Shown in pieces: positions 18,222 to 59,122 of a stretch of DNA of 64,000 nt. Source of the DNA: Planctomycetota bacterium (GTDB taxonomy: Bacteria > Planctomycetota > UBA1135 > UBA2386). The notes below the pieces were generated by a model that worked only from the letters and a program-made list of their open reading frames with translations, did not search any database and was not told the DNA's origin. The stretch is taken from contig JBKAGP010000001.1 in the NCBI GenBank assembly GCA_046290465.1, positions 3,456,001 through 3,520,000 of the forward strand. The letters run 5' to 3'. Numbering within the stretch: the stretch's first letter is position 1; every line of letters starts with the position of its first letter. The translations under genes were made by a program, and so were the position numbers.

Positions 18222-19838
18222 ATGAGACTTTCCGCCACCATTCTGTCCGCAGCCCTTGCCCTCGCGCCGCTCGCGGCCCAGGACGCGACCGTCACCGTGC
18301 TTCACGGCGTTCCCGGCCTCAACGGCCCGGTCGACGTGTTCGCCAACGGCAACCAGCTGTTCAGCTTCGACTACGGCGACCAGCAGGGTCCGCTCGAGCT
18401 GGCTCCGGGCGCCTACGCGCTCGAAGTCCGCCAGAACGGCTCGACGCTGCTGAGCCTGAACGCGACGCTCGCCGCCGACACCGACTACTCGGTGATCGCC
18501 AACCTCGACGAGAACGGCAACCCGCAGCTCGGCGCGTTCGTCAACGCGCTCGACAACCTGACGCTGCCGACCTCGCGCCTCTACGTGCGGCACACCGCCC
18601 AGGCCCCCGCGGTCGACGTCGTGCTCGAACAGAACGGCACCACGTTCGCGACCATCAGCAACGTCAGCAACGGCGGCGACGCGACCGCCGACGTCCCGCC
18701 CGGCACCTACTCGGTGCGCCTGAACGTCGCCGGCACCAGCAACACCGCCTTCGGGCCGGTCGAAGTGCGCGTCGAGGACGGCATCGGCTACGGCGTGTTC
18801 GCGGTCGGCCAGGTCGGCACCAACAACTTCCAGCTGCTGCAGCAGCGCGTGCCGCTGACCGCGCTGGTCACGGTCGCGCACGGCATCCCGGCGCTCGGTG
18901 CCCCGGTGACCGTCGAGGCCAACGGCAGCGCGCTGTTCACGTTCGACTACCGTGAGGTCGTCGGTCCGCTGGTCGTGCTGCCGGGCACCTACACGTTCGA
19001 CGCGGTCGTCAACGGCAACTCGGTGCTCAACCGCACCGACACGGTCGGTCGCGGCGACGACGTGACCATCGTCGCGCACCTCGACGGCAGCGCCGCGCCG
19101 CAGCTGTCGGCGTTCGCCAACGACACCACGATGATCCAGAGCGGCAACGCCCGCGTCACCGTGCGCCACCTCGCTGCCGCACCGGCGGTCGACGTGGTCG
19201 TCGACGACGTCGCTGGCCCGCTGGCGACGATCCCGGGCCTCAGCAACGGCAACGAGGCGGTCGCGCAGCTGCCGCTCGGCAACCTGCAGGTGAGCCTCGC
19301 CGCCGGTGGCAACACCGTCTTCGGCCCGGTCAACTTCCGCCCGGTCGACCACGTCGCCTACCAGTTCCTGGCGCTCGGCGACTTCAACGGCGGCACGTTC
19401 ACCGTCGAACTGGTGCAGCGCGACCTGGCCCCGGCGGTCCCGGCGCAGATCACCACGCAGATCGGCGGCTGGAGCTGTGGCCCGGCGATCTCGGCCTCGC
19501 CGAGCACGTTCGACTACGGCCAGCCGTGGAGCCTGATCGCGACCGGCGCACAGCCGAACGCGATGGCGATCGTCAACTTCGGCGACAGCATCTCGTCGCT
19601 CGGCGCGCTGTCGCTGCCGCTGCAGCTCGACGCGATCGGCGCCCCGGGCTGCTTCCTCAACACCAACCTGGTCGCGTCGATCGCGACCATGACGGACGCC
19701 TCCGGCACCGTCGAGGTCGGCTACACGATCCCGGGCTCGCTGTTCGGCCAACTGCAGCCGAGCTACTTCCAGGTCGGCACGATGACGAGCGGCAACGCGC
19801 TCGGCTTCGCCACCAGCGAATACCTCGAGATCCGCTAG
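18222..19838 (+). CDS. secreted DUF4397-repeat protein with the shared C-terminal domain
   Basis: ATG at 18222 with signal peptide; four V-x-V-x-H...(A)PVDV-type sub-repeats; C-terminal LPLQLDAIGAPGC...NALGFATSEYLEIR. Confidence 0.85.
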   Translation: MRLSATILSAALALAPLAAQDATVTVLHGVPGLNGPVDVFANGNQLFSFDYGDQQGPLELAPGAYALEVRQNGSTLLSLNATLAADTDYSVIANLDENGNPQLGAFVNALDNLTLPTSRLYVRHTAQAPAVDVVLEQNGTTFATISNVSNGGDATADVPPGTYSVRLNVAGTSNTAFGPVEVRVEDGIGYGVFAVGQVGTNNFQLLQQRVPLTALVTVAHGIPALGAPVTVEANGSALFTFDYREVVGPLVVLPGTYTFDAVVNGNSVLNRTDTVGRGDDVTIVAHLDGSAAPQLSAFANDTTMIQSGNARVTVRHLAAAPAVDVVVDDVAGPLATIPGLSNGNEAVAQLPLGNLQVSLAAGGNTVFGPVNFRPVDHVAYQFLALGDFNGGTFTVELVQRDLAPAVPAQITTQIGGWSCGPAISASPSTFDYGQPWSLIATGAQPNAMAIVNFGDSISSLGALSLPLQLDAIGAPGCFLNTNLVASIATMTDASGTVEVGYTIPGSLFGQLQPSYFQVGTMTSGNALGFATSEYLEIR

Positions 19839-35181: not shown

Positions 35182-35304
35182 GGGTGGTCAGGGGGAGAGC
35201 CCCGCGGGGGCACTGCGGGGCGGGCGAGGGGTGGACGGCCCGAACGTGGTCCTGTCGGAGAAATGACGCGGAACGGCCGGAGCTCGGATCCGTCGGACGG
35301 CACA

Positions 35305-37707
35305 ATGGCGACGATGCGGGTCGCCTGGGTCGTGCTGCTGGTCGGACTGCTGGTCGGACTGCTGGCGGGGATCGCCTGGTGGCTTCGGCACGACGGCGCG
35401 CCCGCACCCCCAACGGCGACGGTGACCGAACTGCCGCTGCCGAAGAGCCTGCAGCAAGTGCGGCCGGCGTCGGACTCGCCGACACGGCGCGAGCACGTCG
35501 CGGAACCAGTCGCTGCTGCTGGGCCCGATGCGGCCGACGACACGGTGTTCGCAACGATCACGGGCCGGTGCGTTCGCCAGGAGGACGGGGCCGGTTGCGC
35601 CGACTGCCGGATCGAACTCGATCGCCCGGGCGCCGACACGCTGGTGGCCCGCAGCGACGGGCGCGGCACGTTCTCCCTGGCGGTCCCCACGGCCAGCGAC
35701 AGCTACCACCTGACCGTCTCGGCGAACGGGCGCGTCACCCGCTACAGAGACCTCGACGAGCTGCGCGCGGGCGCGACCGAGGACCTCGGCGAGCTGCCGA
35801 TGCAGCGCGGCTTCCTGGTGCCCGGCCAGCTGGTCGACACCGAAGGCGCGCCGGTCGCCGACGTGCACCTGACGGTCGCCGGCTTCGACAACCAGATCCC
35901 GGCCGGCCACACCCGCTTCGGCGCGTCGATCGCGACGACCGACGCCGCCGGGCGGTTCACGTTCGACGGCGAGATCCCGCACGGCACCTGGCAGATCCAG
36001 CTGCAGGGCGACTACGTGCTGCTCGAAGACCGCTTCTCGATCGTCGGCGACCAGGCGCCGACGCTGCAGCTGGTCGTGCGTGCGCTATCGCGGATCCAGG
36101 GTCAGGTGCTCGGTCCCGACGACCACCGCATGACCCACATCGTCGTCGCCACCGCCGATCGCGCGGTCCGCGCCGAGACCAACGCGGTCGGCGACTTCGT
36201 GCTGCGCAGCGCCGAGCCGCGGCACGGTCCGGTCGACCTGGTCGTCGACGACGGCGCCAACTGGCCCGACGCGCCGCGCACGCGCGCGCACTGGGGGGAT
36301 CACGGCATCGTGATCCGGCTGCCGGAGACGCCGCCGATCGAGGTCGAGGTCGTCGACGACCGGGGCGAGCCGGTCGAACGGTTCGGCCACCGCTTCGCCA
36401 AGGGTGGCCGCGCGTCGCAGAGCGCGCCGCCCGAGGACCACCCGGAGGGCCGGCTGCGGCTGCAACCGGGTGGACGCGGCACGTTCGTGCTGCGGGTGTT
36501 CCCCGAGTCCGAGCGCTGGGCGGCGTCGCCGCCGCACCAGGTCCTGGTCACGGCGACCCGGCAGCCGCGCCTGCGCGTGACGGTCCCGAGGCTCGACGAC
36601 GCCACCGTGCAGGTGCTCGACGCCGACGGTACGCCGGCGGCCGGGGTCGAGGTCACGCTGTTCCGCACCTACGCGGGGGTCGCCCAGCACACCGGCATCG
36701 TCGACCTGCGCCGGCCGATGTACCACCACGCCGGCGACCACAACGAACGCGTGTCGGGTGGCCGAAGCGACGGCCGCGGCAGGCTCACGATCCCGACCCC
36801 ACGCGATCCGACCGGCCTCTTGCTGCGCGTGCGGCAGGGCAACGCCCGACCCGACGACACCGTCGCGACTGCGCTCGCGCGCGAGCGGCGCCAGACGCTG
36901 GTGCTGCAGCGCTACGGACAGGTCGTCGGCCGGGTCGAGCTGCGCGGTGCCGACCACCGCGACTACGTCGTCGGCCTGTTCGACGCGGACGGCATCCGCG
37001 TCGAAGGCGCGAGCACCGCCCGGCTGAAGGCCGACGGCAGCTTCCGCAGCCCCCCGCTGCGGGTCGGCAGCTACCGCGTGCGGCTGATGAACGCGATGGC
37101 CGTGTCCGGGCCGCACACGTCGATGACGTCGTTCGTGCCGTGCCGCGTCGACGGCGCCCTGCTCGAACGACGGGCCACGGTCGCGGCGGACACGCCGGCC
37201 GAAGTGACGTTCGCGGTGCCGCAGCGCACGTTCGGGCGGCTGCGCGGCCGCCTGGTGCCGACCGACGGCGCCGGGCTGCCGGCGACGGTCTGGCTCGAAT
37301 ACGCCGACTACGACCTCGGCGCGCGCGGCGAGTTCGCCGTCGATGCGCACGGCGACTTCCACGCGACCGGCCTGCAGCCGGGTCGCTACCGGGTCGCGGT
37401 CGGGCGACCGGTGCGCGCGGGCGTGCTGGCCGAGGTCGTCACGGTCGTCGCCGGCCAGACCGTCGCGCAGTCGTTCCACTACGAAGGCCGCACGGTGCGG
37501 GTCGACCTGCTCGACGCTCGCGGCGCTCCGGTCGAACGAACCTGCTGGGTCCGCTACGCCGGCCGCACGCGCCGCATCTACGACGGCCGCTCGGTGACGT
37601 TCGCGTGCGCGCCGACGATCCCGGTCGCGTTCGCCCGCACGCCCGAAGGACCATGGACGGCTGCGAGCCTGCTCGACCAGCCGCACGTGCGCGTCACGCT
37701 ACCGTGA
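35305..37707 (+). CDS. membrane-anchored carboxypeptidase-regulatory-like repeat protein
   Basis: ATG at 35305 or 35314, transmembrane helix, repeats GQLVDTEGAPV, TTDAAGRFTF, VVDDRGEPV, VLDADGTPAAGV. Confidence 0.8.
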   Translation: MATMRVAWVVLLVGLLVGLLAGIAWWLRHDGAPAPPTATVTELPLPKSLQQVRPASDSPTRREHVAEPVAAAGPDAADDTVFATITGRCVRQEDGAGCADCRIELDRPGADTLVARSDGRGTFSLAVPTASDSYHLTVSANGRVTRYRDLDELRAGATEDLGELPMQRGFLVPGQLVDTEGAPVADVHLTVAGFDNQIPAGHTRFGASIATTDAAGRFTFDGEIPHGTWQIQLQGDYVLLEDRFSIVGDQAPTLQLVVRALSRIQGQVLGPDDHRMTHIVVATADRAVRAETNAVGDFVLRSAEPRHGPVDLVVDDGANWPDAPRTRAHWGDHGIVIRLPETPPIEVEVVDDRGEPVERFGHRFAKGGRASQSAPPEDHPEGRLRLQPGGRGTFVLRVFPESERWAASPPHQVLVTATRQPRLRVTVPRLDDATVQVLDADGTPAAGVEVTLFRTYAGVAQHTGIVDLRRPMYHHAGDHNERVSGGRSDGRGRLTIPTPRDPTGLLLRVRQGNARPDDTVATALARERRQTLVLQRYGQVVGRVELRGADHRDYVVGLFDADGIRVEGASTARLKADGSFRSPPLRVGSYRVRLMNAMAVSGPHTSMTSFVPCRVDGALLERRATVAADTPAEVTFAVPQRTFGRLRGRLVPTDGAGLPATVWLEYADYDLGARGEFAVDAHGDFHATGLQPGRYRVAVGRPVRAGVLAEVVTVVAGQTVAQSFHYEGRTVRVDLLDARGAPVERTCWVRYAGRTRRIYDGRSVTFACAPTIPVAFARTPEGPWTAASLLDQPHVRVTLP

Positions 37708-44357: not shown

Positions 44358-46241
44358 CTACTGGTCGAAGGTCGCGCGCCCCGCGTCCGACACCACGATG
44401 CCGAGCGGGTTGACGTAGTCGACCACCGCCCACTGGTGGAAGAACTCGAGGCCGACGTAGGCCGGGTTGCTCGGCAGGTTGAACGTGCCGCTCGCCGCGC
44501 CCTGGCCGTCGGTGATCTTGAGCTCGAGCAGTTCGGGCGAGACCAGCAGGTCACAGCCCGGCGCGCCCGGCAGCGCCACCGGCAGCGGCGCGCCGTTGTA
44601 GACGGTGTCCGACTGCCCGGTGACCAGCACCGCGAACGTGCTCGGCAGCGCGTTCGCCAGCGTGACGTCGTAGCTCGAGCCGAGGATCGGCGAACCGGCG
44701 TTGCCGAGTTCGGGCACGATCGTGTTGCCGCCGGTGCAGGTGACGCGGTAGGACGGCCGTTGCACCAGGCCCGACTGCGACCAGTTGCCGGTGACCGCGG
44801 TGCGGTAGTGGCCGACGCCGCCAGCACCCCCGGTCAGGTTGGAGATGACGCCGTCCGGCGAGTTCTCGTAGCCGATGTAGAACGTGCCGTTCACGGTCAC
44901 CGGCGACGCCAGCGTAGCGGTGTAGAAGCCGGCCGACGGACTGACGGTGATCGTCGTGCTCGCCAGCGGCGTCGTGTCGGGCCCGTTGCCGGTCGACGCG
45001 TAGACGTGCGCCGGGCGCGTGATCGTGCCGTTGGTCGACTCGGTGTAGATGTCGAACGCGCTGATCTGGATCGGCCCGGTCGTCGTCACCTCGTAGCAGT
45101 ACTCATACTGGTTGGTGTTGCCGGTCAGCGTGCCGCCGCCCGCGTTGAGTTCGGGGCACGGTGCGGTCACCGAGCCGGGGCAGCCCTGGCCGAAGTTGCT
45201 GAAGCTCGCACCGCTCGGGCGCACGATGTAGAGGCCGGTCGTGCGGTCCGAGATCAGGATGTTGCCCGACGGCAAGAACGGGTAGCAGCCCCAGCAGCCG
45301 TTGAAGCCGCCCGAAGCGCCGGGCCACGTGTCGTACGACGCGACCTCGACCGGGTTGCTCGGGTTGCTGATGTCGAGGCAGCGGTAGCCCTCGGTGTACC
45401 AGCTGACGTGCACCTTGTCGCCGACGATGAACGCGTTGTGCGGGATCGACGCCGGGTTCGGCGTGAACGAGCTCAGCCCGATCGGGTTCGACTTGTTGGT
45501 GATGTCGAAGATCCGGATCACGCCGCCGGCCACCTCGTCGGTCGTCACGCACAGCGTGCCCGCCGCGTTCGGCCACGCGTTGTGCGTGAAGTTGCCGGGG
45601 GTGCCGGTGTTGCTCAGCACCGGGTGCGGGAACGAGCTGGTATCCGAGATACGCAGGTCCCCGTTGTAGATCATCGAGCCGTAGAAGTAGCCGTTCTCGA
45701 CGCAGATGTCGTGGTAGTAGTTGCTGTTGCCGCTACCCGTCGTCGTGCCGATGTAGGTCGGGTTGGCCGGGTTGGCGTTGAGGTCCCAGACCGGCGTGCC
45801 GACGTTGGTGCCGGCGAGGTAGAGCAGGCCGGTGCCTTCGTCGATGCAGATGTTGTGCGCGTTGTTGGTCACCGACGTGCCGAACGCGCCGACCGCGGTC
45901 GGGCTGTTCGGGTTGCTGAGGTCGATGATCTGGAAGCCCGACGTCGACTCGGTCACCACGTAGGCGTAGTTGCCGAAGGTGCGGCAGTCGCGCCACGTCG
46001 ACGACCCGAACGGGAAGAAGCCTCGCTCGATCGGGGTCGCCGGGTTGCTGACGTCGACGACCACCGTGCCCGTCGTCGAGCACAGCAGCGCGTACTCGTC
46101 GCCGTTGGGCGCCGTGTAGCCCCAGATGTCGTTGAACGGGCCGTGGTTGTTGAACGTGCCGAGCAGGGCGCAGTTGACGCCTTGGGCGGAGATCGACGCG
46201 GCCAGGATGCCGGTCAGGAGGAGTGCCTTCTTCGTGAGCAT
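44358..46241 (-). CDS. choice-of-anchor B (LVIVD-type propeller) protein with the shared C-terminal domain
   Basis: ATG at 46241; NDIWGY...EYAL, WRD, AHNI, YYHD, THNAW, PHN, SWYTEG, WGCYPFLPSGNILISDRTTGL. Confidence 0.9.
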   Translation of the reverse strand: MLTKKALLLTGILAASISAQGVNCALLGTFNNHGPFNDIWGYTAPNGDEYALLCSTTGTVVVDVSNPATPIERGFFPFGSSTWRDCRTFGNYAYVVTESTSGFQIIDLSNPNSPTAVGAFGTSVTNNAHNICIDEGTGLLYLAGTNVGTPVWDLNANPANPTYIGTTTGSGNSNYYHDICVENGYFYGSMIYNGDLRISDTSSFPHPVLSNTGTPGNFTHNAWPNAAGTLCVTTDEVAGGVIRIFDITNKSNPIGLSSFTPNPASIPHNAFIVGDKVHVSWYTEGYRCLDISNPSNPVEVASYDTWPGASGGFNGCWGCYPFLPSGNILISDRTTGLYIVRPSGASFSNFGQGCPGSVTAPCPELNAGGGTLTGNTNQYEYCYEVTTTGPIQISAFDIYTESTNGTITRPAHVYASTGNGPDTTPLASTTITVSPSAGFYTATLASPVTVNGTFYIGYENSPDGVISNLTGGAGGVGHYRTAVTGNWSQSGLVQRPSYRVTCTGGNTIVPELGNAGSPILGSSYDVTLANALPSTFAVLVTGQSDTVYNGAPLPVALPGAPGCDLLVSPELLELKITDGQGAASGTFNLPSNPAYVGLEFFHQWAVVDYVNPLGIVVSDAGRATFDQ

Positions 46242-46369
46242 GGGAGAGGGGAGTGGGGCAACCGACAGGGTGCGACGGCGGCAGGCACCGCCGTCGCGGG
46301 GTTCGAGGGGATGCGACCCGGCGAGGCTCGTCGGCCCAGCTGGGTCGCTCGGCAGCTGGGTCGCTGGCC

Positions 46370-48262
46370 TTACTGGTCGATGGTCGCGCGACCGGCGTCC
46401 GAGACGACGATGTTGAGCGCGTTGACCTGGTCCCAGACCGCCCACTGGTGGTAGAGGCTGAGGCCGATGTTGGCGGGCGAGGCCGGGATGCTGAACGGCG
46501 CGCTGGCGGTGCCCTGCGCGTCGGTGATGAACAGCTCCAGCACGTCCGCCGCGACGAACAGGCTGCAGCCGGGCGCGCCGGGGATCGCGATCGGCAGCGG
46601 GGCGCCGTTGTAGACCTGGTCCGACAGACCCGAGACGCAGATCGCGAACGTCTGCGGGATCGCATCGGCCAGCGTCACGCTGTAGTTCGAGTTGAGCGTC
46701 GGCAGGCCCTGGTTGCCGATCGACGGCGTGATCGCGCCGCCGCCGGTGCAGTTGACGCGGTACGACGGGCGGTCGACCAGGCCCGAGCTGGTCCACTGCG
46801 CCGGCCCGTTGATCAGGTCACGGTAGTAGCCCGAACCCTGCTGGCCCGCCTGCAGCGAACTGATGATCACGTTGTTCGAGCTACTGTCGAGGCCGATGTA
46901 GAACGTGCCGTTGACCGCGACCGGCGCCGCAAACGTCGCGGTGTAGAACTGCGGCGACGTGCCGATCTGCATCGTCGTACTGGCGATCGGGCTCGCGCCC
47001 GGGCCACCGTTGACGTCCGGGTAGATGTGCACCGGGCGGTTGAGCGTGCCACCGGTCGTCTGCGTGAAGATGTCGACCGACGTGATGTTGATCGGGCCCG
47101 CCGACTGCGCGGTGTAGCAGTACTCGTTGTCGCGGGTGTCGCCCTCGAGCGAGCCGCCGCCCGGGTTGAGCTCCGGGCACGGCGCCGTGGCCGAGCCGGG
47201 GCAGCCCTGGCCGAACCTGGCGAAGTTCGCGCTGGTCGGGCGCACGATGTAGAGACCGGTCGCGCGGTCCGACACCAGGATGTTGCCCGACGGCAAGAAC
47301 GGGTAGACGCCCCAGGCGCCGTTGAAGCCGCCCGACGGGCCCGGCCACGTGTCGTACGACGCGACCTCGACCGGGTTGGCCGGATCGCTGATGTCGATGC
47401 AGCGGTAGCCCTCGGTGTACCAGCTGACGTGCACCTTGTCGCCGACGATGAACGCGTTGTGCGGGATCGACGCCGGGTTCGGCGTGAACGAACTCAGCCC
47501 GATCGGGTTCGACTTGTTGGTGATGTCGAAGATCCGGATCACCCCGCCAGTCACCTCGTCGGTCGTCACGCACAGCGTGCCCGCCGCGTTCGGCCACGCG
47601 TTGTGCGTGAAGTTGCCGGGCGTCTGCGTGTTGCTGAGCACGGTCTGCGGGAACGTGCTCGCGTCGGCGATGCGCAGGTCGCCGTTGTAGATCATCGAGC
47701 CGTAGAAGTAGCCGTTCTCGACGCAGAGGTCGTGGTAGTAGTTGCTGTTGCCGCTGCCGCCGGCGCTGCCGAGGTAGGTCGGGTTGGCCGGGTTGGTGTT
47801 GAGGTCCCAGACCGGCGTGCCGGCGTTGGAACCGACCAGGTAGAGCAGGCCGGTCGCGGTGTCGACGCAGACGTTGTGCGCGTTGGTCGTGACCGACGTG
47901 CCGAACGTGCCGACCGCGGTCGGGCTGTTGGGATTGGTGAGGTCGATGATCTGGAAGCCCGACGTCGCCTCGGTCACCACGTACGCATAGTTGCCGAACG
48001 TGCGGCAGTCGCGCCACGACGACGAGCCGAACGGGAACCAGCCGCGCTCGATCGGGGTCGCCGGGTTGCTGACGTCGACGACCACCGTGCCCGTCGTCGA
48101 GCACAGCAGCGCGTACTCGTCGCCGTTGGGTGCCGTGTAGCCCCAGACATCGTTGAAGGGACCGTGGTTGTTGAAGGTGCCGAGCAGGGCACAATTCACG
48201 CCTTGGGCGGAGATCGACGCGGCAAAGATGCCGGCCGCAAGGAGGGCTTTCTTCATCTGCAT
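46370..48262 (-). CDS. choice-of-anchor B protein, tandem paralog, with the shared C-terminal domain
   Basis: ATG at 48262; same motifs as the adjacent paralog (NDVWGY, GAWGVYPFLPSGNILVSD). Confidence 0.9.
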   Translation of the reverse strand: MQMKKALLAAGIFAASISAQGVNCALLGTFNNHGPFNDVWGYTAPNGDEYALLCSTTGTVVVDVSNPATPIERGWFPFGSSSWRDCRTFGNYAYVVTEATSGFQIIDLTNPNSPTAVGTFGTSVTTNAHNVCVDTATGLLYLVGSNAGTPVWDLNTNPANPTYLGSAGGSGNSNYYHDLCVENGYFYGSMIYNGDLRIADASTFPQTVLSNTQTPGNFTHNAWPNAAGTLCVTTDEVTGGVIRIFDITNKSNPIGLSSFTPNPASIPHNAFIVGDKVHVSWYTEGYRCIDISDPANPVEVASYDTWPGPSGGFNGAWGVYPFLPSGNILVSDRATGLYIVRPTSANFARFGQGCPGSATAPCPELNPGGGSLEGDTRDNEYCYTAQSAGPINITSVDIFTQTTGGTLNRPVHIYPDVNGGPGASPIASTTMQIGTSPQFYTATFAAPVAVNGTFYIGLDSSSNNVIISSLQAGQQGSGYYRDLINGPAQWTSSGLVDRPSYRVNCTGGGAITPSIGNQGLPTLNSNYSVTLADAIPQTFAICVSGLSDQVYNGAPLPIAIPGAPGCSLFVAADVLELFITDAQGTASAPFSIPASPANIGLSLYHQWAVWDQVNALNIVVSDAGRATIDQ

Positions 48263-48392
48263 GGGGAGATCGTGGAGTCTTGGCGCAGACTCGAGGCGGG
48301 GTGGCAGATCTACTGTATGCGACGCGCGCCCAGGCACCAATCGGCCCCGGGCAGCAAGGCGACGGCGAGCGCCGCTTGATTACGGGCAACCG

Positions 48393-48647
48393 CTAGGAGC
48401 GCGTCCATGTAGTGGACGCGCTGCCGACCGTGATCGCGGAAGCGGCGTGTACGCGTGCGGACGGGGCTTTGCCCACTAGGAGCGCGTCCATGTAGTGGAC
48501 GCGCTGCCAACCGTGATCGCGGAAGCGGCGTGCACGCGTTGCGGACGGGGCTTTGCCCACTAGGAGCGCGTCCATGTAGTGGACGCGCTGCCAACCGTGA
48601 TCGCGGAAGCGGCGTGCACGCGTTGCGGACGGGGCTTTGCCCACTAG
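48393..48647. repeat. head-to-tail array of three 83/84-bp CTAG-bounded palindromic units (REP/MITE-like)
   Basis: CTAG at 48393, 48476, 48560 and 48644; near-identical units with no unique spacers; each carries the hairpin agcgcgtcca-tgtag-tggacgcgct. Confidence 0.95.
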
Positions 48648-50311
48648 CGAATCTCGAACCGCCAGCCCGGCGGCAGCTGGATCGGCGGCGCCTGGATCGT
48701 CAGCGGCAGCACGGCGGCCTGCACGATCAGCTGGGCGCCGTAGAGCAGCGGCTGGTTGGGGACCTGCCAGGACGTGCCCTGCTGGCCGGTGTAGATGCCC
48801 GGCAGGAACACGATCTGCGCCGGGTCCATGTAGACGTGGTACGGCGGTGGCAGCGGCGAGACGAACTGCGGCACGACGCCGAGCGCGAACGCCCCGACCA
48901 GGCCGGTCGGCAGGTCCATCGAGAACTGGATCGCGCCGCCGAACGGCGCGTCGTCGGGCGCGACCTCCATCGATCCCAGCTGCGCCTGGGCCAGCGACGC
49001 GGTCGCGCTGACTCCGGCGCCCGGGCTGGCGACATAGCAGCCGTTGGTGGTGATCAGCCCCGCGGCAGTCGCGGCGCCGGTCGAGCCGCCTTCGAAGCTC
49101 GAGCCGACGAACGACACCGGGCCGGTGCCGAGCGACTCGACGACGCAGTCGGTGAAGCGCGACTCGGTGACCTCGAAGGCCTGGCCGGCCTCGGTCGAGA
49201 ACGAGACCGCGCCGTCGCGGCAGCGCAGGTTGCGCACGTCGAGCGACAGCGGCGCACCGCCGGTCGCGACGGTGACGTCGCCGACGCAGCGGAACTCGCG
49301 CAGATGGCCGTAGAGCTGGTCGCCGACGGCACCGAGTTCGAGCGCGACGCCGCCGGGCGGCGCCAGCAGGTTCCACATCGAGCACTGCAGCCAGGTCACC
49401 GCGTCGCTGGCGCCATCGATGCGCGCGCACAGCGGCGACCGCACGCGCAGGTGCGTGCCCTCGACCAGCAGCGGCCGGCCGTTCGTCGACGGAGCCGCGA
49501 GGTCGACGCCGGTGCCGGTGCACTCGACGACGCAGCGGTCGAGCGTGAAGCGCGCGGTGCCGCCGGTGCCGACATCGAAGTCGAACCCGGTCGCAGCGCC
49601 CGTGACGCGCACGTCGCGCGCCTCGAAGATCGTGTCGCGATCGGCCGGCGAGTCGTCGAACGCGATCGCGTTCGGCACGTTCACGAAGCGGCAGTTCTCG
49701 ACGATGAAGCGACCGACGCCGCCGGGCAGCGTGCCGTCGACGTCGATGCCGAACTGGGCGAGGTTCTCGAACACGCAGTCGAGCACCGTCAGCCCGGGCT
49801 GGCCGGTCGCGTCCGACTGCACGACCTCGAGGCCGCTCGGACCACCGAGGAAGCGCAGGCCCTGGATCACCAGGCTGCTGCTGGTCGAGTGCAGGCCGTA
49901 GGTCAGCCCGGGGGCGCTCAGGTCGAGGGTCACGCGGCCGCCAGCGCCGCGGATGAACAGGCCGAACGGCGTGTTGACGATCGACTCGAAGTCCTGCTGC
50001 ACGGTGATCGTCGGGATCGCCTCGGAGTCGATGTCGATCCACGTCACGTCGGTCGTGACCGAGCCGGGCAGCAGGCTGACCTGCAGTTGCTCGGCGGCCG
50101 ACAGCTGGGTGACGGTGATCGTGCCGTTGTGCAGCTGGATCGCCTCGTTGAGCGACAGGAAGGCGTCGCCCAACGTGCCGTGCGAGAGCGCGTCGTTGAC
50201 GAACGCGATCTGGTGGAACGACGGCGGGTTGGCGGCCGGCAGCGGTGCCGGGATGCCGTCGGCCCCCGGGTGCCCCGCACAGGCGAGCAGGGAGAGAAGG
50301 GATGCAATCAT
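48644..50311 (-). CDS. secreted probable beta-helix protein with a divergent copy of the shared C-terminal domain
   Basis: N-terminal hydrophobic segment; LSLNEAI (CSLREA-like); repeating V.DCVF/VENCRF/LDRCVV strands; ends WQVPNQPLLYGAQLIVQAAVL...FEIR. Confidence 0.75.
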   Translation of the reverse strand: MIASLLSLLACAGHPGADGIPAPLPAANPPSFHQIAFVNDALSHGTLGDAFLSLNEAIQLHNGTITVTQLSAAEQLQVSLLPGSVTTDVTWIDIDSEAIPTITVQQDFESIVNTPFGLFIRGAGGRVTLDLSAPGLTYGLHSTSSSLVIQGLRFLGGPSGLEVVQSDATGQPGLTVLDCVFENLAQFGIDVDGTLPGGVGRFIVENCRFVNVPNAIAFDDSPADRDTIFEARDVRVTGAATGFDFDVGTGGTARFTLDRCVVECTGTGVDLAAPSTNGRPLLVEGTHLRVRSPLCARIDGASDAVTWLQCSMWNLLAPPGGVALELGAVGDQLYGHLREFRCVGDVTVATGGAPLSLDVRNLRCRDGAVSFSTEAGQAFEVTESRFTDCVVESLGTGPVSFVGSSFEGGSTGAATAAGLITTNGCYVASPGAGVSATASLAQAQLGSMEVAPDDAPFGGAIQFSMDLPTGLVGAFALGVVPQFVSPLPPPYHVYMDPAQIVFLPGIYTGQQGTSWQVPNQPLLYGAQLIVQAAVLPLTIQAPPIQLPPGWRFEIR

Positions 50312-50528
50312 GGCGCGGTGGATCCCTCAGACGGGATCCGCAGGGAGGGCAGGCGAGGCCCCAGAAGGGTACTCGATGTCTTCGCAGAGGGTCAACGGGG
50401 CCAACCGGCACCGGGCGACGCCATCGCGCGTTCGCGGGCGAAGAAAGGGCGAGCGCTCGACGGAGGGGGCGATTCCGGAGCGCTCGGGGTGGGGCGCCGG
50501 CCGCAGCCGGCGCCCCGTCGGGCATCGC

Positions 50529-52436
50529 TTAGAGCGTGCCGATCTTGAAGCAGACCGCGTTGCTGAGCGTCAGGCCCAGCTGGTTGGGCGGCAGCTGGAT
50601 GTGCAGCGCCGCGCCCTGCGCGTAGACGTCGAAACCAGCCGTGGCGGCCGGCAGCGGGAACGGCAGGACGATCTCGCCCGGCAGGCTCGGATCCTCGAAC
50701 GCCGTGATGACGATCGGGGCCGGGTTCAGGCCCGGGTAGAACGGGCAGCCCGGCATGCCGATGACACCGAGGTCGACCGGGACCGGGTTGACGGTCGTGT
50801 TCAGCGCGAACAGGCCGATGTGGCCGATGCCCGCCGGGTAGGCCGGCAGGTTGCCCATGACGAGGTCGGCGTTGCCGTTCTCGACCGGACGGGTGGCCAG
50901 ATCCAGCGTCGGGGCCGACGAGCCGTCGCCCGAGACCGCGGCGCCCGGCAGGGCCGGGATGGCCGACCAGTCGGTCAGACCGCCGACCGGCTCACCGTTG
51001 CCGGCGCTGAAGCCGATGATGGCGTCGTTGCCGCCACCGTCGTTGGCCAGGTTCGGGCCGTAGGCGATGTTGACGACCGAGCCGTCTTGCGTGAACTCGA
51101 TCGACATGCTGCAGGTGACACCCGCGACGACCGGCCAGTTCGGGACGTTGTCCCACCAGATCATGACGCCGCCGAGGTTCGGGCTCGGCTCCATCACGTA
51201 GATGTCGCCACCCCCGGTCGGGTCGAGGTCGGTGTTGAAGACGCACCACTGCGTGGCGAGGTCACGGAACGGCACGATGCTCGCGTAGTTGGCGCCGTTG
51301 TAGTTGAACGACGTGTCGCTCGGGGCAACCGTGTCGAAGTAGACCTTGCCGTTCGAGTTGATGCCCAGCTCGGTGGCCATCAGGCCGCCGCCCGGGGCCG
51401 GCAGGGAGATCGGGAACGCCGGCGTGTAGCTGAACGTGCAGTCGTCGAGCGTGCCCGACGAGTTGGCGATCGGGACGGCCGCGCCACCACCTTGCGTCAG
51501 GTTGGTCGCACCAGCGGGCGGCGCGATGTACGGGATGCCGCCGTTGCTGATCTGGTAGAAGCCGCCGTTGGCCGACGGGGTCAGGATCGCCGTGTAGGCG
51601 GTGCTGGCCACGTCGATCGGCTGCGTGTTGGCCGCGATCTGCTCGTAGATCATGAACGGCAGGTCGTAGCAGCCACCGCCGATCGACTGCGACGCGCCGG
51701 CGTTCGGATCCGGCGTGTAGTCGAACGCGATGTTCGGCTGGTCGTTGAAGATGCCGCCGATCGCCGGGTTCGGGATCAGCACACCCGACGGGTCGACCTG
51801 CTGCCAGCCCGACGTCTGGATGTCGCCGTTGCTCATCTGGATGAACTGGTCGCTGCTGAGCGGGTCCGGCCAGTTGGCGGGCGAGAAGCCGATGCAGGAG
51901 TGATCGCCCGGGTTCAGCAGCGGGACGTTCGTCTGCGGCAGCGAGGTGGTGCCCTGCCAGGTGGTCGGGATGTACTCGATGCAGAAGCCGTAGCTGCCCG
52001 CCGGGAGGACGAACGTGAACGGCGCGTTGGTGACCGGGTCCTTGAAGTTGGTGGTGACGCAGTCGCCGTTCCACGGAACGATCGTCATCTCACCCGTCGC
52101 GACGTGGGTCCAGTTGGCGGGAGTACCTTCCTGGCCGACGTGCGTGGTCGGGGTCGTGTAGATGCGGACTTCGGCGACGTTGCCGCTCTGGTCCGGAGGA
52201 GTCGTCGAGCCGGCACCCTGACTGTAGGTCGTGGTGTAGATCTCGTTGATCGTCAGCGGAGCATCGACGGCGAGGTCGACGTACTGGTTCAGCGTGTCGC
52301 CGTTGGCGCTCGCGTAGTAGAAGCTGACGGCCCACGGATCGAACGTTCGGATCGTGGACGGGTTGAGGGCGTTGCACTGCGCGAACGCAGCGCCGGCGGT
52401 GGCCATAACGGCCAACGCAATCTTCGAGGTTTGCAT
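50529..52436 (-). CDS. secreted protein with a nidogen-like central region and the shared C-terminal domain
   Basis: Signal peptide AFAQC; LDD...PAFPISL...INSNGKVYF, DLDPTGGGDIYV, WDNVP; ends PVDLGVIGMPGC...YAQGAAL...NQLGLTLSNAVCFKIGTL. Confidence 0.8.
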   Translation of the reverse strand: MQTSKIALAVMATAGAAFAQCNALNPSTIRTFDPWAVSFYYASANGDTLNQYVDLAVDAPLTINEIYTTTYSQGAGSTTPPDQSGNVAEVRIYTTPTTHVGQEGTPANWTHVATGEMTIVPWNGDCVTTNFKDPVTNAPFTFVLPAGSYGFCIEYIPTTWQGTTSLPQTNVPLLNPGDHSCIGFSPANWPDPLSSDQFIQMSNGDIQTSGWQQVDPSGVLIPNPAIGGIFNDQPNIAFDYTPDPNAGASQSIGGGCYDLPFMIYEQIAANTQPIDVASTAYTAILTPSANGGFYQISNGGIPYIAPPAGATNLTQGGGAAVPIANSSGTLDDCTFSYTPAFPISLPAPGGGLMATELGINSNGKVYFDTVAPSDTSFNYNGANYASIVPFRDLATQWCVFNTDLDPTGGGDIYVMEPSPNLGGVMIWWDNVPNWPVVAGVTCSMSIEFTQDGSVVNIAYGPNLANDGGGNDAIIGFSAGNGEPVGGLTDWSAIPALPGAAVSGDGSSAPTLDLATRPVENGNADLVMGNLPAYPAGIGHIGLFALNTTVNPVPVDLGVIGMPGCPFYPGLNPAPIVITAFEDPSLPGEIVLPFPLPAATAGFDVYAQGAALHIQLPPNQLGLTLSNAVCFKIGTL

Positions 52437-54341: not shown

Positions 54342-56129
54342 ATGATCGGAACCAACCACCTCTCGCCGCAGCGGTTTCTCGCAGCCGCGCTCCTGGTCAC
54401 CCTCGCCGGCTGCGGCGGTGGCGGCGGCGGCGGCGGCCCCAGCTCGGCCGCCCCGGTGATCGTCACCGCGTCGTTCTCAGGCGTCGGCGCCAACCCGGCC
54501 GCCGGCGACACGCTGGTGCTCGCCTTCTCGACCACGATCACGCTGGCTGCGGGCCAGCTGCTGACCGACGACGACCTGGTGCTGTCGACCGGCGACACGC
54601 TCGGCACGGTCACGGTCGCGCCGACGCTGCTCAGCTCCAACACCCTGTCGGTCACGCTCGGGGCCGGCGTCAGCTTCACGCCGGGTTCTTCGACGATCGC
54701 GCTCGGCGCGGGCAACGACGTGGTCGGTGGCACCGCCACGTCGCCGCAGGCCGGCGGCGACCCGATCACGATCGGGACCAGCGACGGCGTCTCGCCGACG
54801 GTCACCAACGTCACGGTCGCGATGATCGACGACGAACTGAACGGCACCGGCGCCGCCGGCGGCACGCTGCAGGTCCCGACCAACGGCTGGAACCTCGACC
54901 TCGCCTACTCCGACAACAGCGCGATCGCGACCACCCAGACCGTCATCACCGCCAACGTCGCGGTCAACACGTCGTCGGGCTCGCAGCTGGCCGGCACCAA
55001 CCTGCGGCCGTTCCTGACCGAGGTCAGCGCCGGCAACACCGCGGCGACCTACACGGTGCCGACGACGGTGCAGTTCCCGCAGACGACGGTGACCCTGACG
55101 GTGATCGTGTCCGACGTCAGCGGCCTGTCGTCGACGCCGACGACGTTCGCCGTCGCGGTGCGGCCGTTCAGCGCCGCGCTGCAGCCGTTTGAAACCGCGG
55201 TCAACGCCAGCCAGGTCTGGTTCCTCGACTTCTCGCGCGACCTCGAGTCCTACACGACCACCGCGGAGGCCGGCGGCTTCTCGGTCGACGTCGTCAACGG
55301 CGCCAACGGCACCAGCGACTTCGAAGACCTGTTGCGCGTCATCGGCCTGACCAGCGCCACGCCGATCGCCAACGTGCAGGGCGGCATGGACAGCAACGAG
55401 GTCGCGATCGACCGCTTCAAGACCAACCTGCTGGCCGACCTCGCCACCTACTACACCGGCGCCAACGTGACGTTCACGCTGACCCAGCCGGCCGGCAGCT
55501 TCGGCAGCAGCACCAGCGTCACCTACAGCTCGCTCGGCTACTCGGCGATCAGCATCGGCGGCGCCTCGACGTCGGCGGGCGTGCTCGGCCTGGCGATCTT
55601 CGATCCGTCGAACACGACCCAGAACAACAACACCGTCACCGACTTCGACAGCCAGCGGCTCGGCGTGTTCCTGCACACGATCGTCGACTCAGGCATGGGA
55701 CCGCCGTCGTCGAGCAACTTCCGCACGACCTTCGACGACTTCGCCACCGACCTCGGCGGCACGCCGATCGGCGACGACGCCCAGGACGGCAACCGCCTGC
55801 TGGGCACCGTCGGCGACTCGCGCGAGACCGCGATCGACGCCGCGCTCGCGGAGCTGGCGCGGTTCGTCGCCACCGTGACCGCGCACGAGTGCGGACACTC
55901 GGTCGGCCTGGTCGTCAACGGCGCGATGCCCGCCGGCCTCTACGGCAACGACGGCGTCAACTTCCCCGGCTCCGCCAACGGGCACATCCGCAATGCGAGC
56001 CTGTTCCCCGCCGGTTCGACCAACATCATGAGCCCGTCGCTGTCCTACACGACCGCGACCAGCTCCTCGACCGACTTCAACACCCTCAACCGGGCGTACC
56101 TGCAGGAGCAGGTCTTCTACGGCAACTGA
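54342..56129 (+). CDS. lipoprotein with C-terminal metzincin-like zinc metalloprotease domain
   Basis: ATG at 54342, lipobox LAGC plus poly-Gly linker, Thr/Ser-rich beta domains, HECGHSVGL and Met-turn-like NIMSP. Confidence 0.8.
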   Translation: MIGTNHLSPQRFLAAALLVTLAGCGGGGGGGGPSSAAPVIVTASFSGVGANPAAGDTLVLAFSTTITLAAGQLLTDDDLVLSTGDTLGTVTVAPTLLSSNTLSVTLGAGVSFTPGSSTIALGAGNDVVGGTATSPQAGGDPITIGTSDGVSPTVTNVTVAMIDDELNGTGAAGGTLQVPTNGWNLDLAYSDNSAIATTQTVITANVAVNTSSGSQLAGTNLRPFLTEVSAGNTAATYTVPTTVQFPQTTVTLTVIVSDVSGLSSTPTTFAVAVRPFSAALQPFETAVNASQVWFLDFSRDLESYTTTAEAGGFSVDVVNGANGTSDFEDLLRVIGLTSATPIANVQGGMDSNEVAIDRFKTNLLADLATYYTGANVTFTLTQPAGSFGSSTSVTYSSLGYSAISIGGASTSAGVLGLAIFDPSNTTQNNNTVTDFDSQRLGVFLHTIVDSGMGPPSSSNFRTTFDDFATDLGGTPIGDDAQDGNRLLGTVGDSRETAIDAALAELARFVATVTAHECGHSVGLVVNGAMPAGLYGNDGVNFPGSANGHIRNASLFPAGSTNIMSPSLSYTTATSSSTDFNTLNRAYLQEQVFYGN

Positions 56130-56131
56130 TC

Positions 56132-57091
56132 ATGCGACTCCTCCCCGTCCTCTGTTCGGCTCTCGCGCTGGCGGCCACTGCCGCGGCCCAGAGCCTCCGC
56201 CGCGGGCTCGTCGACGCGGACGCCGTGTTCGTCGGCCGCCAGGTCGGCAAGAAGCCGCACGGCGACTCGCTCACGCTGCACCGGGTGCAGATCGTCGAGA
56301 ACGTGCGCGGCGTCGACGGCCACCGCGCCGTCACCGTCATCGACTGGCCCAAGCTGTCGCTGCACAACCGCCCGACGCCGCGCCAGTCGCGGCTGTTCTG
56401 CCTGCAGGACGCGTCGGCGATCGCCGAGCGCCTCGCGCTCCCGGCCAGCGGCGCGCCCTACTACAAGATGGTCGGTTGGTCCGGCAGCCACCCGCTGATC
56501 GGCGCCGACCGGGACCAGGATCCGATCGTGAGGTTCGCGCGCACGCTCGCCGACGGCGAGAAGGGCACCGCACCGGACGTCACCGCCGCAGCGCTGGTGA
56601 CGATGGCGATCAGCGGTGACGCCAGCGTGCGCACCGAAGTGACCCGCTACCTGACCGAACGTGGCGACCTGCGCGGCAAGCTGTCCGCCGTGCACTGGAA
56701 CCAGCTGATGGCGCGCGCCACCGGCGAGGTCGAGGACGTCGACTACAAGATCGCGCTGGCCACGCTCTGCGGGGAGCAGCGGCTCGAAGGCCTCGTCGAG
56801 GCGCTGGCCGTGTCGCTCGGGCCGGTCACCGACCCGCGCTATGCCCGCTGCGTCGGCCGCATCAGCGAGGTGCTGCACGGCGAACGGGCGACCGAGGTAC
56901 TCGGCCGACGGCTGCGCAACCTCGGCAAGCAGCAGGACCGCAAGATGGTGCTGATGGCGATCGGCGCCACCAACACGCAGTCGGCGCTCGACGCGCTGAT
57001 GAAGATGGACAAGAAGGACGCGGCCGTGGTCGCCGCGCTGCGCGAGCACCGTTCGAAGAAGGCGCGGGACGCTGCCGGCAGGCGCCGGTAG
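56132..57091 (+). CDS. secreted hypothetical protein with HEAT-like helical C-terminus
   Basis: ATG at 56132, 2 bp after the upstream stop; signal peptide; DADAVFVG N-terminal beta region, then helical repeats. Confidence 0.7.
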   Translation: MRLLPVLCSALALAATAAAQSLRRGLVDADAVFVGRQVGKKPHGDSLTLHRVQIVENVRGVDGHRAVTVIDWPKLSLHNRPTPRQSRLFCLQDASAIAERLALPASGAPYYKMVGWSGSHPLIGADRDQDPIVRFARTLADGEKGTAPDVTAAALVTMAISGDASVRTEVTRYLTERGDLRGKLSAVHWNQLMARATGEVEDVDYKIALATLCGEQRLEGLVEALAVSLGPVTDPRYARCVGRISEVLHGERATEVLGRRLRNLGKQQDRKMVLMAIGATNTQSALDALMKMDKKDAAVVAALREHRSKKARDAAGRRR

Positions 57092-57664: not shown

Positions 57665-59122
57665 ATGTCGCACCGCCGCATCCTGTGCGCCGCGCTCGCC
57701 GCGGCGTTTCCCGCCCTCGCCGTCTCCCAGTGTCCGCTCGCGTGGCAGCCGTTCGTCGGCGGCGGCGCCGACGCGCGCGTGCGCTGCCTGCTCGACTCGC
57801 CGTTCGGCCTGGTCGCGGGCGGCGACTTCCTGACCCTGGGCGGCACGGCGTGCAGCCACCTTGGGACCTTCGAAGGCGCCACCTGGCAGCCGCTCGGCGG
57901 CGGCACCGACGCAACCGTGCGCGACCTGGTGCTCGCGCCCAACGGCGACCTGGTCGTCGGCGGCTCGTTCACGACCGCGGGCGGGCAACTGGTGGACCAC
58001 GTCGCCCGCTGGAACGGCGCCGGCTGGAGCGCGCTCGGTGGCGGGGTCGACGGCGCGGTCTGGTGCGTCGCGGTGCGAGCCAACGGCAACGTCATCGTCG
58101 GCGGCAACTTCGCAACCGCGGGCGGCGCGCCGGCCAGCAGCATCGCCGAGTTCGACGGCAGCAGCTGGCAGGCCTACGGCGGCGGCGTCAACTCGACCGT
58201 GCGCACGCTGCACGTCGCCACCAATGGCGACGTGTTCGTCGGCGGTGGCTTCGACCAGGTCGACGGCCAGGCGATCAGCCGGCTGGCGCGCTGGAACGGC
58301 AGTTCGTGGTCCCAGGTCGGCAGCGGCACCAACGGGCCGGTCTACGCGCTGGTGCCGGCAGCGAACGGCGACCTGCTGGTCGCGGGCAACTTCACGGCGC
58401 TCGGCAGCACGCCGACCCAGAACCTCGCGCGATGGAACGGCACCGCGTTGCTGCCGTTCGCGACCGGCCCGGACGGACCGGTGGAGACCGTGGCCGTGCT
58501 GCCCGACGGCGACCTCGCCGTCGGTGGCAGCTTCTCGACCGCCGGCGGCGTGCCGACCAACAACACAGCCCGGCTCGACGGCGCCACCTGGACCGCGCTC
58601 GACGGCGGCGTCGACAACCGCATCGACGACCTGCTGTTCACCGCCGGGGAACTGCACGCGTGCGGCGCGTTCACGTCGACCAGCAGCGCGCCGAGCGCGT
58701 TCGTCGCGACCCTGCGCACCCCGTGCCCGGCCGGCGTGATGCCGTTCGGCGCGGCCTGCGGCGGCACCTCGCTGCAAGCCAGCACCGCGCCGTGGACCGG
58801 CGCCGGCTACACCGTGCGCGGCCTCGGCTTCGCCGGCACCGCGCTGGTCGTCGCCGTCACCGGCCTGTCGCCCGCCAGCCTGCCGCTGCCGGCGCTGCTG
58901 CCGCAGTCGCTGCCCGGCTGCCAGCTGTCCGCCACCCCCGACGTGCTCGACCTGCTGGCCCCCACGTCCGGCGAAGCGAGCTACACGTTCGTGCTGCCCA
59001 ACGACCCGACGATCGCCGGCCAGACCTTCGTCCAGCAGCTGGTCGCCTTCGACCTCTCACCCGCAACCATCACCTCGATCACCAGCACCAACGCCCTCCA
59101 GGCCACCATCGGCACGTTCTGA
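57665..59122 (+). CDS. secreted beta-propeller repeat protein with the shared C-terminal domain
   Basis: ATG at 57665; about seven repeats of GDLVVGGxFxxAGG...ARWNG.W..LGGG; ends FGAACGG...LPGCQL...QQLVAFD...TNALQATIGTF. Confidence 0.88.
   Translation: MSHRRILCAALAAAFPALAVSQCPLAWQPFVGGGADARVRCLLDSPFGLVAGGDFLTLGGTACSHLGTFEGATWQPLGGGTDATVRDLVLAPNGDLVVGGSFTTAGGQLVDHVARWNGAGWSALGGGVDGAVWCVAVRANGNVIVGGNFATAGGAPASSIAEFDGSSWQAYGGGVNSTVRTLHVATNGDVFVGGGFDQVDGQAISRLARWNGSSWSQVGSGTNGPVYALVPAANGDLLVAGNFTALGSTPTQNLARWNGTALLPFATGPDGPVETVAVLPDGDLAVGGSFSTAGGVPTNNTARLDGATWTALDGGVDNRIDDLLFTAGELHACGAFTSTSSAPSAFVATLRTPCPAGVMPFGAACGGTSLQASTAPWTGAGYTVRGLGFAGTALVVAVTGLSPASLPLPALLPQSLPGCQLSATPDVLDLLAPTSGEASYTFVLPNDPTIAGQTFVQQLVAFDLSPATITSITSTNALQATIGTF

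Follow-up and report, generated by a model that had tools for sequence, protein, structure and literature searches.

The window analysed here is a stretch of 64,000 nucleotides (positions 3,456,001-3,520,000 of a single-contig genome of 6.59 Mb, G000:C1, with 70.2% G+C and 94% complete). It encodes six predicted exported proteins which share a domain of about 135 residues, and the conclusion supported by the analysis is that this domain is a lineage-restricted and uncatalogued module of Sec-exported proteins. On computation it is real, expanded, single-copy and position-tolerant, a folded unit on predicted signal peptidase I substrates, which is exclusive with lipid anchors and swaps with them. 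As for its role, we put at about even the chances that the domain is a folded, retained and non-covalent envelope tether for Sec-exported enzymes and adhesin-like proteins, alternating with the lipid anchor, in which case the site of tethering would most likely be the outer surface. Close homologues are labelled Planctomycetota. The G+C content is the same as that of the Saltatorellus clade, ca 70% in the accessible part of 10.64898/2026.10.26.761892, a match which does not place the genome.

An initial annotation, made from the letters of the window alone, had proposed that the six proteins end in a common tail which acts as a sorting or anchoring signal. All six open reading frames exist where it had placed them, with likely starts at 46241, 48262, 50311 and 52436 on the minus strand and at 18222 and 57665 on the plus strand, two of which the codon model puts slightly later. 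The carriers and their parts are as follows, the E values of the domain being those of a profile built from 161 other copies with the six window proteins excluded, and the strand scores those of a position-specific scoring matrix (PSSM).

44358..46241, minus strand: carrier 1, 627 residues; predicted signal peptide, choice-of-anchor B (LVIVD) propeller, and apparently split domain around an insert of ~150 residues
44361..44780, minus strand: main (C-terminal) domain part of carrier 1, residues 488-625, E 1.1e-33
45180..45212, minus strand: putative displaced first strand of carrier 1 with the first cysteine (GxGC motif), PSSM 21.1, 284 residues before the end; control maximum 7.2
46370..48262, minus strand: carrier 2, paralogue of carrier 1, 630 residues
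46373..46792, minus strand: main domain part of carrier 2, E 1.4e-31, AlphaFold predicted local distance difference test score (pLDDT) 94.6
46748..47200, minus strand: insert inside the apparently split domain of carrier 2, weakly choice-of-anchor R-like (NF041539, E 6.6e-4, below cut-off), with flanking cysteines
47201..47233, minus strand: putative displaced first strand of carrier 2 (Cys354), PSSM 14.8
48644..50311, minus strand: carrier 3, 555 residues, weakly beta-helix-like (Beta_helix E 0.002); domain E 4e-5
50529..52436, minus strand: carrier 4, 635 residues, no Pfam family; apparently split domain with a longer insert
50532..50945, minus strand: main domain part of carrier 4, E 1.4e-15
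51669..51701, minus strand: putative displaced first strand of carrier 4, PSSM 11.1, 390 residues before the end
18222..19838, plus strand: carrier 5, DUF4397 repeats followed by the domain in unsplit form (~19431-19835), E 1.3e-14
57665..59122, plus strand: carrier 6, Rax2/DUF5122-type propeller followed by the domain in unsplit form (~58712-59119), E 8e-23

The relatedness of the tails is borne out. Five of the six are linked by pairwise BLASTP (E 1e-8 to 5e-3, leaving aside the pair of paralogues, which are 64% identical), and the profile from the other copies recovers all six, its best reversed decoy having an E value of 1.7. The tail of carrier 3 is the most divergent, as had been noted; it gives no pairwise alignment and its conserved cysteines are missing. 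The labels given to the N-terminal parts fared less evenly. The LVIVD propellers are indeed choice-of-anchor B (TIGR04312 at 190 and 196 bits against a cut-off of 100) and carrier 5 does contain DUF4397, while carrier 6 is a propeller whose type is Rax2/DUF5122; the beta-helix of carrier 3 amounts to a weak match below cut-off, and ‘nidogen-like’ for carrier 4 finds no support in Pfam. The length had been put at ~120 residues, short of the measured ~135, and the picture of a single C-terminal block fits carriers 5 and 6 but not 1, 2 and 4, where the domain appears to be split and the distance from its first strand to the end is 284, 287 and 390 residues, respectively. No tail has the look of a transmembrane helix, in keeping with the initial annotation: over 19 residues a mean hydropathy of 1.9 is reached by three of the 193 domains of the genome described below, and 2.2 by none.

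Genome-wide, a profile from the six tails matched 99 of 51,419 six-frame open reading frames at E < 1e-3 and on iteration converged at 177, of which 169 end no more than 15 residues from the stop, with no match to reversed reading frames in any round. By the union of three profiles, the domain is carried by 193 of the 4,948 genes predicted by the codon model (88.6% coding; genes are named g_N from their start positions in the genome), always as one copy and with no reversed decoy matching, and these carriers make up 5.4% of coding residues. They tend to lie together, 49 of them adjoining another carrier where a mean of 14.6 is obtained at random. The domain is C-terminal in 163, followed by a short extension in 11, N-terminal after the signal peptide in seven and internal in one, the other 11 copies being short or partial. 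Of 164 carriers, 133 have a hydrophobic stretch and, after it, a small residue and Gln, as do 674 of the 3,182 other proteins that are at least 250 residues long; a stricter signal-plus-Gln pattern is seen in 118 of 193 against 529 of 3,164. These calls, and those of lipoboxes, are regular-expression heuristics on our own gene model rather than SignalP results. Predicted mature N-termini are very often Gln, in the carriers as in hundreds of other exported proteins. The glutaminyl cyclase family PF05096 was not found in the window genome and is present in only 5 of 46 genomes tested; given this, pyroglutamate formation by way of that family is not supported. Among the 60 best-scoring of the 151 carriers outside the window which were scanned, 31 contain a Pfam family, and the passengers include peptidases of M14, S8, M10 and trypsin type together with Kelch, RCC1, Rax2/DUF5122, BNR, PKD, CHRD, GEVED, LTD, PPC and others. 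Where the head is choice-of-anchor B, 114 of the 120 closest homologues end in the domain and the remaining six appear truncated.

The family is a very large one for having no name in Pfam or NCBIfam. At E up to 0.001 it is matched by 27,410 representatives clustered at 50% identity, and in the best 150 of these the domain is C-terminal in 147; N-terminal copies recur in other genomes. Those matches that bear a name are labelled only Planctomycetota, Planctomycetes or bacterium, the remainder being unlabelled. In a survey of 301 Planctomycetota genomes, with 13 candidates scored per genome and a negative meaning ‘not found’, 67 match, 61 with 4-13 of the 13 candidates and six with one; in other words, the domain is multi-copy in about a fifth of the genomes sampled, and in the window genome it accounts for ~4% of the genes. 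The 61 domain-rich genomes span 16 families, and the families listed are all-or-none (8/8, 6/6 and 6/6 versus 0/16, 0/17 and 0/11); when all candidates were scored in five sister-family genomes, no copy came up in three of them and a single one in each of the other two. No description of the domain was found in the full-text papers searched, among which subscription papers are largely absent. The Saltatorellota preprint (10.1101/817700) makes no mention, in the accessible part of its main text, of secretion, C-terminal, signal peptide, lipoprotein or S-layer, and PMC11032199, as far as its accessible part goes, deals with kinases. PMC3482391 has no bearing on the domain, PVC being used in it for the Photorhabdus virulence cassette.

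Comparison of 66 members with Pfam and NCBIfam at E up to 1 gave 14 NCBIfam and five Pfam hits, all sporadic and none of which explains the domain; there was no match among them to models of the C-terminal domain (CTD) of the type IX secretion system (T9SS), nor to those of dockerin, cohesin or the S-layer homology (SLH) family. The AlphaFold model of the main part in carrier 2 is a beta-sandwich, and that of an unsplit copy (pLDDT 97.7) has eight strands, the first of which runs into the GxGC motif. On these models the domain is an immunoglobulin (Ig)-like beta-sandwich, and it probably contains a disulfide. Its matches in fold searches are generic Ig, macroglobulin (MG) and fibronectin type III (FnIII) domains, with best Z scores of 9.2 and 8.0, and neither a solved T9SS CTD nor a cohesin is among the matches listed. 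Several apparent relatives were set aside as non-specific: the cohesin likeness from the sole chain found by a sequence search of the PDB, a cellulosomal scaffoldin at E 0.62; the alpha-2-macroglobulin matches; and the named hits in the ESM Atlas (0.84 or less), which are CHRD/Spondin proteins of Planctomycetota. The ML lipid-binding domains (GM2 activator, NPC2, Der f 2 and MD-2) resemble the domain as hydrophobic beta-sandwiches of similar size and rank first by Foldseek with the unsplit model (E 2e-4 to 1e-3). Their TM-scores of only 0.26-0.33, at a root-mean-square deviation of ~12 A, and their absence from the top 50 VIA-align matches make this likeness a lead at most rather than homology, and it is treated as non-specific.

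The mean column identity is 25-30%, with the highest conservation (92-97%) at one Gly, one Pro, the strand-F Gln and a terminal Gly. Two cysteines co-vary, such that 93 copies have both, 14 neither and 17 one (odds ratio 25, p 3.5e-8), and in several other families both are lost together. Since they are present or lost as a pair, they probably form a disulfide rather than a site of lipid attachment. The domain is more hydrophobic than its passengers (mean hydropathy +0.40 versus -0.04), with a mean net charge of -5. Strands B and E alternate between polar and apolar residues; in C, D, F and the first part of G both faces are apolar, and these strands lie beside a Leu/Pro-rich flap. Prediction of two copies as a homodimer gave a median of 0.32 against a mark of 0.42, which is counted neither for nor against binding. 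Of the 107 C-terminal carriers in which the motif is missing near the end, 22, carriers 1, 2 and 4 among them, have a strong match to the GxGC strand 170-400 residues upstream, a displacement seen in none of 45 unsplit controls. In these proteins the module appears, from its sequence, to clasp an inserted domain, and if it closes in this manner around an insert it would act as a folded unit. Removal of such a module would also discard the domain that it encloses, and the split architecture therefore argues against cleavage of the domain.

What points towards anchoring is the relation of the domain to lipoproteins. None of the 193 carriers has a lipobox, against 118 of the 3,164 other proteins, 529 of which show the signal-plus-Gln pattern (Fisher p 8e-10). 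Moreover, related passengers occur with one anchor or the other. In g_6211652 the domain ends at residue 393 and the protein aligns from residue 391 with the lipoprotein g_1960310 from its residue 301 (48.5% identity over 604 residues); in g_96842 it ends at residue 166 and the protein aligns from residue 169 over ~420 residues with the lipoproteins g_214750 (49%) and g_4730523 (43%). The N-terminal Kelch carriers g_6275941 and g_5031252 match the Kelch lipoprotein g_5414171 at 31-34%, a repeat family and hence a weaker case. Further matches join g_4060001 to giant lipoproteins, in their C-terminal half (E ~1e-5 in the window genome, and 3e-26 and 5e-21 in two others), and a haloperoxidase-like carrier to the lipoprotein g_5590604 at 29%. 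In other words, the domain takes the same architectural position as a lipoprotein anchor with its Ig stalk on paralogous passengers. Unlike that anchor, it is a protein module borne by proteins of signal peptidase I type; a lipidated cysteine at the N-terminus is lacking, and the conserved cysteines behave as a disulfide pair. A separate observation concerns CHRD proteins: in a family that lacks the domain, CHRD repeats are borne by a lipoprotein with an Ig-like stalk (L127, G254:C3:29576-33406), and a CHRD protein of the window genome (L027) ends in the domain, which makes a cross-lineage swap between the two possible.

If the domain is a tether of this sort, a carrier would first be exported by Sec and cleaved by signal peptidase I, usually leaving an N-terminal Gln, as its sequence predicts, after which it would fold and form its disulfide in the periplasm. 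Passage through the outer membrane, the weakest step of the scheme, might then follow a general route, the best candidate being a secretin/pseudopilin apparatus akin to a type II secretion system (T2SS). Finally, the hydrophobic C-D-F-G face and the cysteine-bearing flap could bind non-covalently to a common envelope component, for which an outer-leaflet lipid, a surface glycan or a protein receptor are candidates, such that the domain, whether N- or C-terminal in its protein, would stand in for the lipoprotein anchor.

A number of points weigh against retention by such a tether. No binding partner was found. The exclusion of lipoboxes is explained equally well by a role in export recognition, if lipid is what routes the lipoproteins, and the ~85% of copies at the extreme C-terminus are explained more simply by an export signal. 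A single genome supplies most of the swaps, in two of them the alignments are weak or of repeat type, and the change may have run in either direction; there is also g_453938, the passenger of g_96842 with neither anchor. In some families the flap and both cysteines are missing, hence they are not essential, and for the strands with two hydrophobic faces, burial beneath the flap may be explanation enough. A periplasmic location of the carriers may be compatible with the data too. Lastly, gene starts are mis-called in several cases, and the signal and lipobox calls are heuristic.

The genome has seven secretins, three Omp85 matches and two exosortase-family matches, and a T2SS is able to display lipoproteins at the surface, according to the accessible part of PMC12802150. 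About ten giant (850-1,300 residues) Big_5 lipoproteins are present, four of them in tandem upstream of a prepilin peptidase and of pilT/pilB/pilC/pilin-like genes, named from sequence and order, a linkage kept in several other families: among 20 regions around homologues, a prepilin peptidase homologue occurs in eight and a pilT homologue in six. With a single query, these lipoproteins co-occurred with the domain (29/36 versus 1/44). A profile search placed them in 93 of 301 genomes, 54 of the 61 domain-rich and 39 of the 240 others, kin not being independent in these counts, and as a specific receptor or scaffold they were rejected, being associated yet neither necessary nor sufficient. A second search went by way of G160, a small distant genome (1.53 of ~2.4 Mb), which yielded 88 shared exported candidates; 42 proteins were scanned with Pfam (41 of the 88 and one neighbour) and three were profiled. 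All three fail as dedicated machinery: g_5563527 occurs in 5/20 domain-rich genomes and 0/22 others, g_1433798 in 19/20 domain-rich, 8/12 sister-family and 0/10 other genomes, and g_869085 in 20/20, 12/12 and 1/10, respectively, so that no gene among the three tracks the domain alone. The last is a protein of 1,727 residues, labelled a GspK/PilX-like pseudopilin from its N-terminal motif and with no Pfam match, found in 33 of the 42 genomes tested and almost only in the wider clade. The product of g_1433798 (G000:C1:1433798-1435987; homologue L183:7580-9943) is an exported protein of 729 residues with no Pfam match and 40-55% identity across distant families, found in 27 of the 42 genomes and in none of the 10 outside the wider clade. 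At a twin-secretin locus (1693134-1705420) both secretins are conserved together in G160 (L136, G160:C5). Neighbours of the domain-only and N-terminal carriers share no common machinery. A T2SS-like route is thus available wherever the domain was checked, and neither the genome searches nor the genome-profile comparisons found anything dedicated to it. The loci concerned are:

G000:C1:1981310-2005894 (L084-L087), also 1960310-1969945, 1763608, 2521255 and 4565006: giant Big_5 lipoproteins
G000:C1:865862-881011 (homologue L146:10858-16008): operon like those of T2SS and type IV pili, with the 1,727-residue protein

Foremost among the rivals is a folded recognition module by which proteins in the periplasm would be chosen to cross the outer membrane, whether by way of T2SS-like secretins or of an unknown translocon, but which would not anchor them, lipoproteins being routed by their lipid. 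We regard this as a credible minority possibility; it is also not mutually exclusive with anchoring. The strong C-terminal bias (163/193), the near restriction to signal peptidase I-type proteins, the seven secretins, the all-or-none distribution by family and the pseudopilin gene in all 20 domain-rich genomes tested speak in its favour. That gene, however, is equally present in 12/12 sister-family genomes with no or single domain copies, and hence not dedicated, N-terminal copies replace anchor and stalk at the matching position, and proteins consisting of a signal peptide and the domain would export nothing. Those same proteins, four to five in number and of 132-193 residues, lend some colour to the idea that the domain self-associates, such that the ~190 proteins and the domain-only ones co-assemble into a mosaic, S-layer-like coat displaying the passengers; so do the share of coding residues (5.4%), the Ig-like fold with its hydrophobic face and the presence of S-layer Ig domains among the generic fold matches (7ptp, Z 6.7). 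The coat is nevertheless improbable, in that an identity of 25-30% is low for a shared lattice interface and the S-layer match is no better than those of unrelated Ig domains. A more elaborate version of anchoring, in which a plug-in, disulfide-clasped Ig anchor grips the outer leaflet or polymerises with itself and forms a mosaic coat of 100-200 different enzymes and adhesins delivered via a secretin/giant-pseudopilin machine, we consider unlikely. Were it true of the whole Planctomycetota branch, covalent sorting would there have been replaced by surface display without sortase, lipid or barrel.

A generic Ig/FnIII-like fold, with carbohydrate-binding modules among the middling matches, and a flexible position would also suit a domain which binds an external substrate or particle, or one which is merely a stabilising Ig module spread by domain shuffling. 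This is decidedly improbable in the face of a single copy in 193/193 carriers, unrelated passengers and the constant absence of a lipid anchor, with which a module for substrate binding would be compatible. The least probable reading of all is a T9SS-like signal read at the C-terminus by a very diverged machine, in which a sortase-like enzyme would cut it off and a covalent glycolipid anchor would take its place. The T9SS CTD is itself an Ig-like beta-sandwich and forms the end of many unrelated proteins which leave by Sec and fold in the periplasm; its signal lies in its last two strands and it is removed by the sortase PorU (PMC5121618, in its accessible part). The domain is likewise an Ig-like sandwich on Sec cargo and the tail of choice-of-anchor B proteins, and there are the exosortase-family matches at two loci. 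The passenger types and the N-terminal Gln presumably also resemble Bacteroidota T9SS cargo, and type A of the CTD we take to be Por_Secre_tail PF18962 / TIGR04183. In contrast to the CTD (70-85 residues, seven strands), the domain has ~135 residues and eight predicted strands, a co-varying cysteine pair and an acidic and hydrophobic character, and it occurs in N-terminal, internal and apparently split forms besides giving no match to the CTD models. PorV was found in 0/61 domain-rich genomes, the control matching in Bacteroides thetaiotaomicron; SprA, SprA_N, C25 (PorU) and PorP were not found in the window genome or the 61, though for these the control genomes were silent too, and a heuristic screen of the largest predicted proteins showed no barrel of SprA size.

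Of the original proposal, the slot stands, through the 114 of 120 choice-of-anchor B proteins, and anchoring gains from the lipobox exclusion and the swaps; a C-terminal, T9SS-like tag is weakened, in view of PorV, position and the split form. None of the outcomes set in advance as contrary to the proposal (tails that do not align, a match to a known domain, random position or non-secreted hosts) occurred.

With respect to other established systems, dockerin-cohesin pairs and SLH domains are retained, non-covalent surface-anchoring modules, one set per protein, at either end and on diverse enzymes. The domain is like them a module at either end, single in each protein and borne by diverse enzymes as a choice of anchor, but it is all-beta in its model, shows no duplication of calcium loops and has neither a Pfam match nor a partner that could be found. 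PEP-CTERM/exosortase, MYXO-CTERM and GlyGly-CTERM signals are lineage-expanded C-terminal sorting tags on choice-of-anchor families; unlike them, the domain is globular and all-beta, without the motif, transmembrane helix and basic tail, and no 19-residue stretch reaches a hydropathy of 2.2. Autotransporters and trimeric autotransporters differ in that the domain is modelled as a sandwich and not a membrane beta-barrel, and its last residue is variable (Q 26, N 25, L 23 and F 22 of 163). A chaperone-usher system is not indicated, the genome, 94% complete, having no usher match where the control matched in E. coli. The domain works like a choice-of-anchor module, and on the features tested it is not a T9SS CTD, PEP-CTERM, dockerin, autotransporter or pilin.

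As a marker, the domain defines the likely surface proteome of little-studied lineages, and the swap pairs offer a direct experimental handle. If it is indeed a retained anchor, it would point to an unknown receptor or export machine; one that works at either end and tolerates inserts would mean that diderm bacteria have a new way of displaying proteins at the surface, and would itself be a candidate tool for display.

Some carriers depart from the common plan. Four to five small proteins of 132-193 residues consist of a signal peptide and little beyond the domain; a subfamily of 350-390 residues has a similar-looking N-terminal domain and an extension of 30-40 residues after the ~135-residue one. 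An exported repeat protein of 2,366 residues with no Pfam family (G000:C1:6333210-6340310) has final residues resembling the last strand of the domain and is possibly a missed carrier.

G000:C1:517440, 4278839, 4859367, 6134578 and 499754: domain-only small proteins
G000:C1:302976, 1574717, 3264950, 3776803, 3869823, 4614759, 4707972 and 6592962: the subfamily of 350-390 residues

In the window, the gene of carrier 4 is covered, with few differences, by contigs of four runs, three being seawater metatranscriptomes from one study and the fourth presumed to be RNA, which is weak evidence for its expression, as contigs cannot exclude DNA. Most of carriers 1, 3 and 6 lacks RNA-contig coverage, which is uninformative. 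Between carriers 2 and 3 (48393-48647) lies an 84-bp unit in three tandem copies (98% matches), which is found again, in short arrays, at some 130 sites across the genome, with best matches of ~90-97% identity, and looks like an element of the repetitive extragenic palindromic (REP) or bacterial interspersed mosaic element (BIME) type. A lipoprotein-like gene followed by one for an exported protein of 319 residues (54342-57091) has a similar-looking counterpart, with five Big_5 domains in the lipoprotein, at G000:C1:6320485-6324467. The minus-strand gene at 27915-29999 encodes an exported DUF1028 protein which has Ig domains of the Invasin_D3 and IPT/TIG types and lacks the ~135-residue domain, and at 31468-37707 a divergent pair of genes encodes membrane-anchored proteins with CarboxypepD_reg repeats, ten of them in the one of 1,237 residues.

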